Positions 13,217 through 19,960 of a DNA stretch of 47,624 nt are shown here, piece by piece; positions within the stretch are counted from its first letter, which is position 1, and every line of letters starts with the position of its first letter. Location: the NCBI GenBank assembly GCA_038999215.1, contig JAWABM010000001.1, positions 15,349 to 62,972 of the forward strand, written 5' to 3'. The stretch is from Candidatus Aenigmatarchaeota archaeon (GTDB lineage: Archaea > Aenigmatarchaeota > Aenigmatarchaeia > Aenigmatarchaeales > JACQIB01). Under the pieces are notes generated by a model. The model did no database searches. It saw nothing but the letters and a program-made list of their open reading frames with translations, and was not told where the DNA came from. Both the position numbers and the translations under genes were made by a program.

Positions 13217-14401
13217 ATGAGAAAGAGTAGCGCGGCCTTTTGGGCCAGCGCAATAGCCCTTTCGTTGGGAATGCTGCTTTTGATAGGAACAACCACAGGA
13301 TACCTTATAAGACAGGACCTAGGAGGCATCGGATGGCCGAATATTCCCGACGGCCTGACCCTGACATGTTCGATTGGCAACTGCAGCAAATGCGCTTCCC
13401 AGACAGCATGCGAAGGGGCTGGCTGCAGGTGGGTGCCTGCCGGCTCCAGCGGTGGAATAGGCTGGACCGCATACTGCGCGGAGCCAGTACAGCAACCAGA
13501 GCCCATCATAGCAAAGGAAAAGGGCAAGGCGAACGCCACCGTGGCAATGATAACGGGCAAAAGGGTGCTCTCTCTCGACTTCGGAAGGGTCGAGGGCCTG
13601 AGCTTCAGAAAAATGAGCCTCGACATGAAGGACGTCAATCCTACCAATGTCATGATATCGGTGGAAAAGCTGCCCGGCAGGCCGGAGGACGTGACAACGC
13701 CCCTCGCGAACGCCTATGAATACGTGAAAGTCAGCACGACCGGGATAACCAGCGATGACGTGAACTCGATCACGATAATGTTCGCTGTAAGCAGGGACTG
13801 GATAGCGGGCAACGACATAGACAAGGCCGCGATAAGGATGAGCAGGTGGAACATTGACACGCTCTCCTGGGACGAACTTACAACGACAACGGCAAGCGAG
13901 GACGCCGCGGAGATCGTGTTTTCGGCCGTCTCGCCCGGATTCTCATATTTCCTCATAACCGGCAGCGAAGCAGCGCCTGCGCCAACGGAGAACATCACCG
14001 AACCGACTGAGAACGCGACAGAGCCGGCTGTCGAGCAGCCCAGCGCCAGGGAAACAGCCAAGCTTGACGCGGAAGAGGCGATATCTCACCTCAGGTCGGC
14101 AATAGAGGCGGCAGGGCTACAGGGCAAGGATGTGCGCGAGGCGGAGGGCCTTTTGGCCGACGCGCAGAACGCGTACGACCTCGGCGACTATGAAACGGCG
14201 CTCGCGAAGGCCGAAGCCGGCCAGCAGTCGCTGAGCGGGGCTGCTGTCATATCGAAGCCCGAAACAAGAGGGGACATGACAGCAATAATACTCCTCATGC
14301 TGGCGATATTGTTCATAGCGTGCGGCGCAATTGGGCTTTTCATCCTGAAAAGTAAGAAAACGACGGTACAGATGCCCGCCCTAGGCGGGGAGCAAGTTTA
14401 G
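13217..14401 (+). CDS. Surface protein: PSI-like Cys motif, PGF-pre-PGF-like domain, helical hairpin, C-terminal TM anchor
   Basis: N-terminal hydrophobic signal. CSIGNCSKCASQTACEGAGCRW motif. The domain MISVEKLPGRPEDV...YEYVKVSTTGITSDDVNSITIMFAVSRDWIAGNDIDKAAIRMSRW...SPGFSYFLITG resembles TIGR04213 (PGF-pre-PGF). Ala-rich helices come next, then TM MTAIILLMLAILFIACGAIGLFIL and KSKK. Confidence 0.75.
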   Translation: MRKSSAAFWASAIALSLGMLLLIGTTTGYLIRQDLGGIGWPNIPDGLTLTCSIGNCSKCASQTACEGAGCRWVPAGSSGGIGWTAYCAEPVQQPEPIIAKEKGKANATVAMITGKRVLSLDFGRVEGLSFRKMSLDMKDVNPTNVMISVEKLPGRPEDVTTPLANAYEYVKVSTTGITSDDVNSITIMFAVSRDWIAGNDIDKAAIRMSRWNIDTLSWDELTTTTASEDAAEIVFSAVSPGFSYFLITGSEAAPAPTENITEPTENATEPAVEQPSARETAKLDAEEAISHLRSAIEAAGLQGKDVREAEGLLADAQNAYDLGDYETALAKAEAGQQSLSGAAVISKPETRGDMTAIILLMLAILFIACGAIGLFILKSKKTTVQMPALGGEQV

Positions 14402-14635
14402 GAAAATTATCCAGCTTATGAACCAGAAGAAAAGGTAGACGGAGCCGCCATTGCCGAACCACCAGCTGAACTTCTTCTCGCGCGCAAGGACGTTCGTGCT
14501 TAACTTGAGCACGTATGCGACAGCAAGCATGAGAACCAGCGAGTACATGTTATTTGATATAACATAGCTGAGATAACCCATTATCAGGCCTGCGAAAAGG
14601 TGCAGTGCCATTACTTTCTTGTCCATGTCCATCAA
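14381..14635 (-). CDS. Small integral membrane protein (84 aa, about 3 TM)
   Basis: Three hydrophobic stretches. The leaderless ATG is ~26 nt from the palindromic ATTTAAAT at 14657-14664. Confidence 0.5.
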   Translation of the reverse strand: MMDMDKKVMALHLFAGLIMGYLSYVISNNMYSLVLMLAVAYVLKLSTNVLAREKKFSWWFGNGGSVYLFFWFISWIIFLNLLPA

Positions 14636-14656
14636 GAAACTTTATTGTCTGAGCGG

Positions 14657-17990: not shown

Positions 17991-18052
17991 TCGACATCCG
18001 ACGCAACAAATTTAATTTATATAGTAGCTGAGCCAATTTTTCTTGTATTCGT

Positions 18053-19960
18053 ATGAGGAACGGAACCGTACTGGCTGCAACGCTGTTCTTGGTAATACTT
18101 TCCACTGCAGCGTCCGCTATACTAACGACGGTGCCGCAATGGCTGTACACAAGCTCGGACAAGACCATCGTCGAGTCCGGCGATGTCGCGGTCCTTAGGG
18201 CCTGCTGGAACACGACAAAGGGGGTAGAGGCCGCCGCACTGCGTGTCTCCACAGACCAGACTAACTTCACCCGCGTCAACGAGACGCCGGACTGGTCGAC
18301 ATCCTACTACCAGATGATACCGTGCAACCTGACGAGCTTCGCGTTCAACACGAGCGGCTATTACGGCACGGTCTTCTGGGGAATAGAAGGAATACTCATA
18401 GACATACCCGCCAATTCCTCGAACTTCACTGCCGGCTATCCCGAGTTCATCGAATACCCGAGCCCGGGCGTCCTGAAAGTGGGCGACAGCAAGGCGCCGC
18501 AATGGAGCGGGCTGAAGCAGGACAGCGACAAGCCCCTCTACAGGGACGCGAACAAGCTCTATGCCACGCTCACGGACAACGTGGGGCTGGCCAAAGTTGC
18601 GTTATGGACGAACGAGAGCGGGACAATGGCCGAGAAGGAAGCGAAAACGATGGACACCACTTACAAGAACATATCCTACGTCGACATAAACGCGCAGGGC
18701 ACAACAATATTCAGCATGTCGGCGGACATAACGAGCGCGACGGTCTGCGACCCCGTCACCGGCTGCACGTTCGTCGCGCAGAGCTTCGTCCCGACAGAGA
18801 GCAAGCTGTCCGGCATCAAGGTGAGGCTGCTGCCAATCGGCACCGCGAAGGGCAACCTCATCGTAAGCATCTACCCGGACCCGATAGACATGACAAAGCC
18901 GCCGCTAGGGAGCATCACCTATGACGCCAGCCTGATAAATATGAACAAGTTCTACTACTTCGACTTTCAGTTACTAAATCTGGAGAAGGAGAAGACATAT
19001 AACATAGTCATCTACGGCGACACGGACACGAACGTCGAAGTCTACATGCAGGAAACATATCCCGAGGGCACAGCCCAATTCAGCAAGGACGGCGGAAAGA
19101 GCTGGAGCAGCTCGCTGACCGACTGGAACTTCATCACGTACACGACAAAAGACAACCCGCAAACTTTCATAAGGAGCTATGACGCCGAGTTCAGCATAAC
19201 AGGCCAGCCCGGCGCCACGAGCTGGAAGATTGTCGGCACCGACCTGGCCGGCAACACGAATGAAACGCCTGTAATGGCGTTCACGGTCAAGTCGGCCGAG
19301 AGCTGCGAGGCTTGCCCGAACTGCACGGAATGGAGCGAATGCAGGCAGAAGGCCAAAGGCAGCCATGACGGGACAATGGAGAGGGTGTGCTACAAGTGCA
19401 GCGCGGAAACGGAATACGTATGCAAGCCCTATAACGACGTCCAGGCCTGCACAATAAGCGTGATACAGGAGGACGCCGACGCTGCCATAGCGGCCGCGCA
19501 GACGGCAATAAAAGAATCTGCTGCGGCAAACCTTAACACGACCGAAGCAGAATCGCTGCTGGCAGGCGCGCAGGCATCCTACGCCAGGTCTGACTGGGGC
19601 GCGGCAGTGATGAAAGCGAATGCGGCAAAAGCCGCAGCCGAGGCGGCGCAACCGCTGCCAATCGGGATAAACTGGGTGCTGCTGGCAGGGCTAGTCGTCA
19701 CAGCGATGGTCGCGGCGTTCGGCATTCTCGTCTACACGAAGAAGATAGACCTGAAAAGCCTGATGGAGAAACTGCCGAAGGTCAATCTGCCCGAAAAAAG
19801 GAAGAAGGAGCCGGAGAAGAAATGCGTGGTCTGCGGGAAGAAGACAGCGGACGGATACAAGTGCAAGGAATGCGGCAAAGACGTGTGCTACGACGACGCC
19901 AGGACATATGAAGGCGACATATACTGCACAAGGTGCCTGAAGAAGAAAGGCATAATTTAA
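18053..19960 (+). CDS. Single-pass surface protein with Ig-like domains, Cys module, helical hairpin, TM helix and cytoplasmic Cys-rich zinc-ribbon tail
   Basis: Sec-type signal MRNGTVLAATLFLVILSTAASA. GDSKAPQW repeat start. Module CEACPNCTEWSEC...C. Hairpin EDADAAIAAAQTAIKES...SDWGAAVMKANAAKAAAEAA. TM INWVLLAGLVVTAMVAAFGILVY. Tail CVVCGKKTADGYKCKECGKDVCYDDARTYEGDIYCTRC. Confidence 0.8.
   Translation: MRNGTVLAATLFLVILSTAASAILTTVPQWLYTSSDKTIVESGDVAVLRACWNTTKGVEAAALRVSTDQTNFTRVNETPDWSTSYYQMIPCNLTSFAFNTSGYYGTVFWGIEGILIDIPANSSNFTAGYPEFIEYPSPGVLKVGDSKAPQWSGLKQDSDKPLYRDANKLYATLTDNVGLAKVALWTNESGTMAEKEAKTMDTTYKNISYVDINAQGTTIFSMSADITSATVCDPVTGCTFVAQSFVPTESKLSGIKVRLLPIGTAKGNLIVSIYPDPIDMTKPPLGSITYDASLINMNKFYYFDFQLLNLEKEKTYNIVIYGDTDTNVEVYMQETYPEGTAQFSKDGGKSWSSSLTDWNFITYTTKDNPQTFIRSYDAEFSITGQPGATSWKIVGTDLAGNTNETPVMAFTVKSAESCEACPNCTEWSECRQKAKGSHDGTMERVCYKCSAETEYVCKPYNDVQACTISVIQEDADAAIAAAQTAIKESAAANLNTTEAESLLAGAQASYARSDWGAAVMKANAAKAAAEAAQPLPIGINWVLLAGLVVTAMVAAFGILVYTKKIDLKSLMEKLPKVNLPEKRKKEPEKKCVVCGKKTADGYKCKECGKDVCYDDARTYEGDIYCTRCLKKKGII
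19304..19450 (+). other. Juxtamembrane Cys module, divergent copy
   Basis: CEACPNCTEWSECRQKAKGSHDGTMERVCYKCSAETEYVCKPYNDVQAC. Confidence 0.6.

Follow-up and report, generated by a model that had tools for sequence, protein, structure and literature searches.

Membrane-proximal modules of putative surface proteins encoded at a conserved locus of a DPANN archaeon

DUF4398 (PF14346) is found mainly in small bacterial lipoproteins and is represented by the crystal structure 4FM3 (P. aeruginosa PA2901). We know of no function described for this family, which overlaps DUF1771 and NCBIfam SAXB-like helical modules. In the archaea, S-layer proteins typically have a C-terminal TM anchor and ectodomains that are Ig-like or beta-rich. 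The S-layer stalks (the SlaB coiled coil, tetrabrachion and the C-terminal anchors of halobacterial S-layer glycoproteins) place a helical or compact element between ectodomain and membrane anchor. A further point of comparison is provided by the PGF-pre-PGF proteins and by the PGF-CTERM proteins, which are sorted by archaeosortase and have a C-terminal TM helix and basic tail. To our knowledge, almost nothing is known of the surface proteins of DPANN archaea, which live attached to other cells.

The locus described here was analysed within a stretch of 47,624 nucleotides (the window). Named relatives of the window proteins belong to Candidatus Aenigmatarchaeota, and the source is a DPANN archaeon related to MAGs of that group. 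Eight surface-protein genes, A-H (Table 1), add up to 15,798 nt, or 33% of the window. This sum matches the 15.8 kb estimated in the initial annotation, which had also placed the ORFs of A, B, C, D and E correctly. The products of A-H are probably single-pass, C-terminally membrane-anchored cell-surface proteins, standing on modular membrane-proximal pedestals. The four genes A-D were initially seen as a co-oriented island. All four do lie on the plus strand, but the run is interrupted between A and B by a minus-strand gene for an EMC6-like protein, which overlaps the 3′ end of A by 21 nt.

Table 1. Surface-protein genes A-H and associated features in the window; domain orders are given from N- to C-terminus.
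Feature	Position	Strand	Description	Evidence
Gene A, 394 aa	13217..14401	+	N-terminal hydrophobic anchor/signal, one PSI-like Cys knot, PGF-pre-PGF, acidic linker, three-helix module, TM, basic tail	ORF; orthologues P0002 (59%), P0003 (47%)
A three-helix module	14051..14254	+	aa 279-346	alignment, profile, AF2
A C-terminal TM helix	14276..14347	+	followed by KSKK tail	sequence
EMC6-like gene, 84 aa	14381..14635	-	small hydrophobic membrane protein	PF19094 28.1 bits, cut-off 26.7
Gene B, 554 aa	14696..16360	+	basic N-terminus and TM anchor, two PSI-like Cys knots, PGF-pre-PGF, two CGNG-type Cys repeats, Thr/Gly linker, three-helix module, TM, KKKK tail	ORF
B three-helix module	16004..16207	+	aa 437-504	alignment, profile
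Gene C, 533 aa	16389..17990	+	basic N-terminus and TM anchor, three Ig-like repeats, Cys module, TM, KK tail	ORF; Big_7 7.7e-11
C Cys module	17712..17843	+	aa 442-485, 4 Cys	E=7e-17, outside-only profile
C TM helix	17862-17933	+	aa 492-515	
Gene D, 635 aa	18053..19960	+	cleavable-looking signal peptide, beta-rich ectodomain (one Asp-box), Cys module, three-helix module, TM, zinc ribbon	ORF
D Cys module	19304..19450	+	aa 418-466, 7 Cys, with insertion	
D three-helix module	19457..19660	+	aa 469-536	alignment, profile
D TM helix	19667-19735	+		
D cytoplasmic zinc ribbon	19823..19936	+	CxxC...CxxC...C...CxxC	orthologue conservation
Gene F, 94 aa	23938..24222	+	signal peptide, one Cys module, TM, KPKKKA	
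F Cys module	within 23938..24222	+	one copy	E=1.8e-12, outside-only profile
Gene E, 1588 aa	24256..29022	+	basic N-terminus and TM anchor, PQQ-like beta-propeller, ~8-10 Ig-like repeats, Cys module, three-helix module, TM, basic tail	ORF
E Cys module	28555-28680	+		
E three-helix module	28684..28887	+	aa 1477-1544	alignment, profile
E TM helix	28900-28959	+		
Gene G, 880 aa	34128..36770	-	signal peptide, right-handed beta-helix, Ig-like region, PGF-pre-PGF, two tandem Cys modules, TM, long basic tail	Beta_helix 7e-17; TIGR04213 1.7e-9
G Cys modules	34485-34607 and 34356-34478	-	tandem pair	
G TM helix	34221-34277	-		
Gene H, 580 aa	38568..40310	-	signal peptide, Ig-like repeats, acidic/Pro linker, TM, basic tail	weak Big_13

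The first of the two modules is an Ala-rich helical segment common to A, B, D and the giant protein E, as had been proposed. It is absent from C, in which 6 residues separate the end of the Cys module from the TM helix. The four copies align ungapped and in register, with 20-26 of 68 positions identical (29-38%) and eight invariant columns. Smith-Waterman scores stand at z = 8.8-13.3 against composition-preserving shuffles, none of 1000 reaching the observed score. A four-copy profile searched against the six-frame translation of the window retrieved exactly A, B, D and E (E = 1e-28 to 1e-31), with the next match at 0.08. The same profile defines a large repeat family of 991 clusters at E<=1e-3, in which many members carry 2-24 tandem copies and hundreds of proteins share a period of 60-68 residues. 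Long tandem arrays occur in other archaeal surface proteins, and among the top 150 matches the last copy often lies 0-27 residues before a TM helix. The segment had been described as a two-helix hairpin; for the module of A, AF2 instead predicts three helices (2-23/29-43/47-62) with high confidence (pLDDT 97, pTM 0.84). The full-length model of D was poor (pLDDT 46.5).

The segments are 35-45% Ala, and the PDB sequence matches of the profile are mostly designed helical repeats and consensus TPRs, as would be seen if unrelated amphipathic helices resembled one another only through a composition rich in Ala, Glu and Lys. Such an origin is hardly credible and is refuted by the alignment, the profile searches and the AF2 model. 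The in-register identity and its z scores, the invariant columns, the period common to hundreds of proteins and the confidently predicted fold all stand against it, and the alignment of the helical segments shows conservation by position rather than by composition alone. Helices 2-3 do resemble one TPR (AE.LL..A...Y..GDY..A...A..A), present in single copy and with an extra first helix. The TPR matches were sub-threshold (TPR_16 E=0.29; consensus TPR proteins in the PDB sequence search E=0.0025-0.012).

The window module resembles DUF4398 in its length (~60-75 residues), its three-helix up-down-up bundle with an Ala/Leu core and its extracytoplasmic, membrane-proximal location. The AF2 model superposes on 4fm3_C with TMq 0.73 and an rmsd of 1.1 Å over 58 columns at 24% identity, the Foldseek E-value of 3.3 being not significant for so small a fold. 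Of 41 individual helical units, 17 reach Pfam DUF4398 and 13 reach DUF1771 at E<=0.01. Multi-copy homologues found with the window profile exceed the DUF4398 gathering threshold of 27.9 bits (P0007 45.3, P0017 46.9, P0020 42.9 and P0032 43.3 bits). The four window copies pass no Pfam threshold and are themselves too divergent to match the DUF4398 model, and neither the segments nor the whole proteins gave a DUF4398 match even at E<=10. The window module thus appears to be a divergent member of this widespread DUF4398/DUF1771-overlapping repeat family, by a link that is transitive plus structural. It differs from DUF4398 in its archaeal setting, as part of fusion proteins in which it links large ectodomains to a TM helix, and the comparison gives fold and family, not mechanism. 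The helical element is therefore catalogued, as the initial annotation had allowed, but not as a described S-layer stalk. Database and PDB sequence searches detected no relationship to the S-layer stalks, from which the window element differs in that its bundle is short and globular instead of forming a long coiled coil, and in its reuse across many different proteins.

The second module is a unit of ~42 residues, usually with six Cys; C, D, E and F have one copy each, and G has two. Its consensus is CPxCPxP(S/T)xW(S/T)xCxxGxQxRxxYxCxxTTxYxC...C, with four invariant Cys and >=90% conservation of P, W, G, R and Y; presumably it is disulphide-stapled. A profile built solely from non-window sequences retrieved six copies in the five window proteins (E = 1.8e-8 to 7e-17). 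Each copy adjoins the TM helix, the helical module or another Cys module, and the same module order was found in the unrelated metagenomic contigs L006 and L007 and in P0110. No match was found in Pfam, NCBIfam or PDB sequences (PDB search to E<=10), and the unit may be regarded as a candidate new domain outside these collections. TSP_1 (PF00090) is likewise small and extracellular, with six Cys and the core W-x-x-C ... G-x-Q-x-R ... C, whereas the window module has a single Trp, another Cys spacing and a CPxCP start. A relationship to TSP_1 was rejected: one of 10 copies reached E=0.036, none passed the threshold, and hhalign gave a probability of 3% against a TSP1 repeat sequence.

A single C-terminal cassette shared by these proteins had been envisaged. 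It holds for D and E, which carry Cys module, bundle and TM, but A lacks a Cys module in its C-terminal region, in B the bundle is preceded by CGNG-type Cys repeats that are unrelated to the module and by a Thr/Gly linker, and C has the Cys module alone. The anchor takes its minimal form in F, the start of which overlaps the stop of the gene for the Hef nuclease, and H has neither module. The sequences point to two independent modules used combinatorially, the bundle in 0-1 copies and the six-Cys unit in 0-2 copies. All the proteins have the C-terminal TM helix, as the initial annotation had stated for A-D, but the tail that follows it in D is not simply basic and carries a conserved zinc ribbon. 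This ribbon (four Cys pairs, ~45 aa, C-terminal to the TM) is nearly invariant in orthologues of 46-56% overall identity, and a 30-residue block (aa 601-630) is 76% identical against 47% overall. Its matches to zf-HIT and zinc-ribbon families were weak, none being significant.

The ectodomains are varied, comprising PGF-pre-PGF, Ig-like, beta-propeller, beta-helix and Cys-rich knots, which agrees with the view of secreted, membrane-tethered proteins taken at the outset. The PGF-pre-PGF model TIGR04213 (curated cut-off 28 bits) matched A at 76 bits (E = 3e-21) and B at 46.5 bits (E = 4e-12), bearing out the domains recognised there by eye, and G at 37.9 bits; it gave no match in C, D, E, F or H. 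Ig-like repeats opening with D-x3-P-x-[WIF] and closing with D-x2-G-N were likewise borne out in C, D and E. Pfam matches are Big_7 (42.9 bits, cut-off 24.1), Big_13 (31.1) and Big_9 (24.6) in C, and Big_7 (28.0 bits) in E. In A, B and G the genuine PGF-pre-PGF domain ends in (S/T)PGFS.F, and all eight proteins share the C-terminal TM helix and basic tail of PGF-CTERM proteins (for D, with the exception noted). Unlike in the latter, the PGF motif is an internal strand, >100 residues from the C-terminus. The inspected pre-TM sequences (...SKPETRGDMT, ...SQPSGTVVID, ...CMAPTGT, ...QPLPIG, ...LKPVE and ...CAPF) have no PGF directly before the C-terminal TM, and the 47.6 kb window contains no archaeosortase gene. 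For these reasons the C-terminal TM probably anchors the protein permanently and is not a sorting signal that is cleaved off.

In the proposed architecture, with signal-peptide cleavage and topology judged by eye, D, F, G and H would be exported via an N-terminal signal peptide, and A, B, C and E via a basic signal-anchor. A lineage-specific ectodomain, made up of the domain types listed above, would then be displayed. One TM helix and a Lys/Arg-rich cytoplasmic tail would hold the protein on the cytoplasmic membrane, following the positive-inside rule. Directly outside the membrane, the three-helix bundle (60-68 residues; A, B, D, E) and the Cys module would fold independently. We infer that both may serve as compact, rigid, protease-resistant pedestals which space the ectodomain from the lipid and perhaps pack laterally; they are unlikely to be the ligand-binding parts. 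A single bundle of 3-4 nm would be a short spacer, and the data would agree just as well with a role in oligomerisation or in binding a partner in the envelope.

The gene order AspRS(-)/A/EMC6(-)/B/C/.../D/p133/HerA is retained in L001, L004 (= L009/L010) and L011, and across the compared loci D is always followed by a gene for a small TM protein and one for a HerA-type ATPase. Comparative genomics was suggested as a means of detecting a variable island; gene order proved to be conserved in at least three related lineages, and the locus belongs to the clade's conserved core genome and is not a variable accessory island. Relative to L001, L004 and L011, the SMC, GGR, AspRS, ScpA and HerA proteins are 77-90% identical and A-D 36-59%. 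The products of the locus evolve at two to three times the rate of the housekeeping proteins encoded nearby, which is to be expected of surface proteins that are exposed. Within D and B the membrane-proximal cassette is conserved better than the rest of the protein. Domain shuffling onto a common anchor had also been proposed. Modules are indeed reused with varied ectodomains, but there is no single cassette, and any shuffling must be ancient, as no DNA-level similarity was found between module copies and the pattern of module presence and absence is retained in orthologues at ~45% identity.

The core, syntenic nature of the locus and the better conserved cassette of D and B could also be accommodated if the proteins were building blocks of the envelope, forming an S-layer-like canopy over a pseudo-periplasm, with bundle and Cys module as elements of lateral packing or oligomerisation. 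The long arrays of the helical repeat elsewhere suggest a structural role, and the C-terminal anchor and beta-rich or Ig-like ectodomains are what S-layer proteins would show. Against this, eight architectures sharing modules are more than a lattice needs, and no described S-layer family was matched in Pfam, NCBIfam or the PDB sequence search; the reading is considered unlikely. D at least could instead be a transmembrane receptor, its ectodomain sensing a ligand or host surface, its zinc ribbon relaying the signal and the Cys module and bundle coupling the two. The near-invariance of that ribbon and the constant small TM protein and HerA-type ATPase 3′ of D would suit such a role. It is decidedly improbable, however, given the short basic tails of seven of the eight proteins, the lack of a significant family match for the ribbon and the absence of kinase, HAMP and other signalling domains.

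The preferred reading remains that of anchored surface proteins on pedestals, for which a role in host adhesion or contact is plausible by analogy with the DPANN lifestyle. A core, syntenic, fast-evolving locus is the pattern expected for proteins at the host or environment interface. The results do not overturn current understanding and are useful at the level of annotation: where archaeal genomes are poorly annotated, the membrane-proximal modules can serve to recognise surface proteins that are anchored in the membrane, and the Cys-rich unit adds a candidate to the domain parts list of DPANN surface proteins. The findings also suggest that DUF4398-like bundles function in archaea as extracytoplasmic juxtamembrane or repeat modules.

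The EMC6-like gene occupies the same position in L001-L004 and L009-L011, and carries the same annotation in L001-L004 and L009-L010. It is a synteny-conserved neighbour, and its membership in the surface-protein system is that of a candidate. In a bolder and very unlikely version, the Cys module, DUF4398-like bundle and TM would form a dedicated platform for envelope assembly and sorting in S-layer-poor DPANN archaea, the modules oligomerising or docking onto a common partner and anchor biogenesis being coupled to the EMC6-like partner of archaeal YidC. The locus would then be a genetically linked insertase-and-client set, with the Cys module as a new extracellular family marking the system. 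The TATA-like boxes ascribed to the individual genes are present as AT-rich stretches 18-32 nt 5′ of each ATG but are not specific to the island, nearly all genes of the window having the same.

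The eight genes A to H of the window are best interpreted as encoding membrane-tethered surface proteins, in which variable ectodomains are mounted on small, rigid juxtamembrane modules. Modular, C-terminally anchored surface proteins of archaea are a kind already known. The ORFs of A to D and of the giant protein E were all found on the plus strand where the initial annotation had placed them, and the eight genes total 15,798 nt (33% of the window), in agreement with its estimate. The window has a G+C content of 56% and contains archaeal housekeeping genes (SMC/ScpA, geranylgeranyl reductase, AspRS, HerA-type ATPase, PCNA, primase, deoxyhypusine synthase and eIF2-alpha). 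The nearest named relatives of its proteins are found in Candidatus Aenigmatarchaeota MAGs. An AT-rich, TATA-like box does lie 18-32 nt 5' of the ATG of each of A to E, but as nearly all other window genes have one, these boxes reflect short-leader archaeal transcription and are not a property of the island.

Features of the window, with module counts of the surface proteins
Feature	Position (nt)	Strand	Cys modules	Three-helix bundles	Residues (aa)
A	13217-14401	+	0	1	bundle 279-346
B	14696-16360	+	0	1	bundle 437-504
C	16389-17990	+	1	0	
D	18053-19960	+	1	1	bundle 469-536
E	24256-29022	+	1	1	bundle 1477-1544
F	23938-24222	+	1	0	
G	34128-36770	-	2	0	
H	38568-40310	-	0	0	
Zinc ribbon of D	19823-19936	+			591-628
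EMC6-like gene	14381-14635	-			
Small anchored protein	19986-20390	+			
HerA/DUF87 ATPase	20421-21677	+			
Hef helicase	21711-23261	+			
Hef nuclease	23291-23941	+			
DUF4349 protein	1091-1981	+			
Peptidase_A24 gene	31352-32173	-			
DDE transposase	45888-46772				
Tyrosine recombinase	46769-47599				

The Ala-rich helical segments of A, B, D and E are homologous copies of one module. The four 68-residue segments align without gaps, with 20-26 identical positions and eight invariant columns. Local alignment scores lie 8.8-13.3 SD above composition-preserving shuffles, none of 1000 shuffles reaching the observed score, and a profile of the four copies matches just these four segments in the six-frame translation of the window. 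Ala-rich composition is thereby rejected as the sole source of the likeness, and the segment shows the positional conservation on which the initial annotation had staked its claim. The proposed two-helix hairpin is instead predicted to be a three-helix bundle. AlphaFold2, run on an alignment of 41 repeat units, places helices at residues 2-23, 29-43 and 47-62 (pLDDT 97, pTM 0.84). The motif first described extends over all three, with A..AI..A...I..A as helix 1, GKD as the first loop, AE.LL..A..A as helix 2, GDY as the turn and A...A..A as helix 3. An N-x-T sequon is frequent in the loop between helices 1 and 2 ('ANLNTTE' at D aa 491-497; 'GKNTT', 'NRNVT' and 'GKNVT' in relatives) and may represent a conserved N-glycosylation site in D and many relatives.

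The helical module is a member of a repeat family that is catalogued but uncharacterised, and is DUF4398-like. A word-indexed search with the C-terminal 160 aa of E, a short and low-complexity query, gave zero matches. A profile search run through all 1.84 billion representatives retrieved 991 clusters at E<=1e-3, 183 of them at E<=1e-10. Many of the retrieved proteins contain tandem arrays of 2-24 copies; examples combine WD40/PQQ-like propellers with repeat arrays, a DxDxDG motif, a TM helix and a cytoplasmic tail. Among the top 150 matches, the TM helix often follows 0-27 residues after the last repeat. Relatives pass the Pfam gathering threshold for DUF4398 and have matches to DUF1771 as well, with NCBIfam SAXB matched below threshold. 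DUF4398 is found at E<=0.01 in 17 of the 41 isolated units, and none of the window's own copies reaches any Pfam model. Superposition of the predicted bundle on 4FM3, a DUF4398 crystal structure, gives a TM-score of 0.73 and an rmsd of 1.1 A, the Foldseek E-values not being significant for so small a bundle. Named members occur in Aenigmatarchaeota, Micrarchaeota, Thermococcus and Dehalococcoidia. In no case is the helical part given a functional name, and no literature on DUF4398 or PA2901 describing the function of the family was found. The initial annotation had named a match of the cassette to a known anchor, such as an S-layer stalk family, as grounds for refutation; the helical element does correspond to this catalogued family, which is not a described S-layer stalk. 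Matches of the profile to PDB sequences (designed helical repeats, consensus TPRs and TPR-like proteins, HEPN-like hairpins and a FIVAR-like Ebh repeat) had marginal E-values and were not accepted as evidence for specific homology.

The Cys module is a separate element, sharper and wider-spread than originally described. This unit of ~42 residues, common to C, D and E, has the pattern CPxCPxP(S/T)xW(S/T)xCxxGxQxRxxYxCxxTTxYxC...C, with four invariant Cys and with P, W, G, R and Y conserved to at least 90%; its cysteines are probably disulphide-bonded. Following a motif scan, a profile made solely from non-window sequences detected six copies in five window proteins (C, D, E, F and G; E 1.8e-8 to 7e-17). 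In G, the two copies stand in tandem before the TM helix, and F, at 94 aa, consists of just a signal peptide, one Cys module, a TM helix and KPKKKA. The module had been assigned to all four island proteins, which holds for C and D, but A has none and the Cys repeats of B (CGNGxC...CCxDCGC) differ. The module also differs from the PSI-like knots at the N-termini of A and B. Comparison with Pfam, NCBIfam and PDB sequences gave zero matches, and the module appears to be undescribed in current domain libraries. A thrombospondin type-1 repeat identity was rejected as a superficial, unsupported likeness (hhalign probability 3%).

The locus scan for the Cys module used four of the closer copies as the query. 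On an unrelated AT-rich metagenomic contig (L006, 631-3885), a 1084-aa subtilisin-like S8 protease is joined to Ig repeats, a Cys module, a PGF-pre-PGF domain, another Cys module and a TM helix, which indicates that the module set also tethers enzymes. A Cys-rich repeat, Cys module, three-helix module and TM helix are combined on contig L007 and in retrieved protein P0110.

In place of the single shared cassette of the initial annotation, the actual order is zero to two Cys modules, zero or one three-helix bundle, a TM helix and a basic tail, mixed combinatorially. The absence of the bundle from C was confirmed. A TM helix and basic tail had been described at every C-terminus; D differs in that its TM helix is followed by a Lys-rich linker and a putatively cytoplasmic zinc ribbon (CVVCG...CKECG...C...CTRC). 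Of the ectodomains, PGF-pre-PGF domains (TIGR04213) are present in A and B, as proposed, and also in G, and Ig-like repeats with the described opening and closing motifs are found in C, D, E and G. A PQQ-like propeller occurs in E and a right-handed beta-helix in G. As no PGF directly precedes the real C-terminal TM helix, the internal motif is no PGF-CTERM signal.

By eye, the N-termini of A, B, C and E show basic residues and then a long hydrophobic segment, and those of D, F, G and H are classical signal peptides. The former may be retained signal-anchors, in which case A, B, C and E would be membrane-bound at each terminus, the entire ectodomain forming a loop in between. Comparison among orthologues revealed no exceptional conservation of these anchors. 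B, C, E and, more weakly, A share a common start (MAKRK or MAKK, a basic stretch, ~25 hydrophobic residues, then T(A/G)Y(I/V)..Q). The 'MAKRK...KKG-F' starts of B, C and E were considered as possible class III (type IV pilin-like) signals in view of the Peptidase_A24 gene, a type IV prepilin peptidase homologue (33 bits) ~2 kb from G; this was rejected, no [KR]G cleavage site being conserved in orthologues. The DUF4349 protein (E=3.5e-59) is another double-anchored envelope protein beyond the eight counted: TM helices at its two ends flank a coiled coil, the C-terminal helix having a KRAKKAK tail.

The order AspRS(-), A, EMC6-like(-), B, C, D, small TM protein and HerA is preserved in three more lineages: L001-L003 (A identity 59%), the Aenigmatarchaeota MAG L004, equivalent to L009/L010 (47%), and L011. 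The L004 MAG contains one additional C-like gene (Cys module and TM helix, without bundle) and an additional domain in A. Even so, every orthologue agrees with its window counterpart in having or lacking the bundle. Identity to relatives is 36-59% for A-D against 77-90% for the housekeeping neighbours. No DNA-level repeats occur between module copies in the window, and recent gene conversion or shuffling among cassettes was rejected on this ground. Rather than a recently shuffled or strain-variable island, the conserved order, the contrast in rate and the lack of DNA repeats indicate an old, fast-evolving locus of the core genome. The clade is sparsely sampled: no database record was found for the exact A sequence, and the search with D gave two homologues, one match among GTDB genomes (the same MAG as L004) and no metagenome locus.

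The EMC6-like gene (84 codons) is wedged between A and B, with a 21-nt overlap with the 3' end of A. It matches the archaeal EMC6-like family PF19094 above threshold (28.1 bits) and has the same arrangement in L001-L004 and L009-L011. Proteins of this type are predicted to partner archaeal YidC and are single-copy in the nine archaeal proteomes surveyed (PMC8675477). The conserved place of this gene inside a surface-protein locus is notable, any functional linkage being hypothetical.

In the predicted membrane topology of A to H, the modules would act as pedestals or spacers. The full-length AF2 model of D (3-sequence alignment, pLDDT 46.5) was used neither for fold search nor for cassette geometry. 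Lateral packing of the modules into an S-layer-like envelope is an alternative. For D, a further alternative is transmembrane signalling via the zinc ribbon, which is among the most conserved stretches across orthologues (76% identity over the 30-residue block at aa 601-630 versus 47% for the whole protein); its matches to zinc-finger families are weak and none is significant, the best being zf-HIT (E=6.5e-4, below threshold). With such a share of the window devoted to these genes in a DPANN archaeon, a putative role in host-cell adhesion is plausible. The literature on PGF-pre-PGF, DPANN or Aenigmatarchaeota surface proteins yielded nothing describing these modules. The initial observation is largely correct, with four corrections, and its interpretation is partly supported. 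The result is useful for the annotation of DPANN cell surfaces.

Several further features of the window were observed. In relatives, D is always followed 3' by the small N-terminally anchored protein (134 aa in the window, without family) and the HerA/DUF87 ATPase. In L004/L010, HerA (852 aa) and the Hef helicase contain inteins (Intein_splicing and LAGLIDADG); the HerA (418 aa) and Hef helicase (516 aa) of the window are intein-free. Hef is split into a helicase ORF (DEAD/Helicase_C) and a nuclease ORF (ERCC4 and HhH), with a TATA-like box inside the 29-nt gap. F, directly 5' of E, has no such box of its own. Overlap of its ATG with the Hef nuclease stop codon hints that F is co-transcribed with a DNA-repair gene. 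Over ~44000-47624 the G+C falls to 0.50, and the end of the transposase gene (DDE_Tnp_IS240) overlaps that of the opposite-strand tyrosine recombinase (Phage_integrase E=7e-45); this region is a possible mobile-element border.
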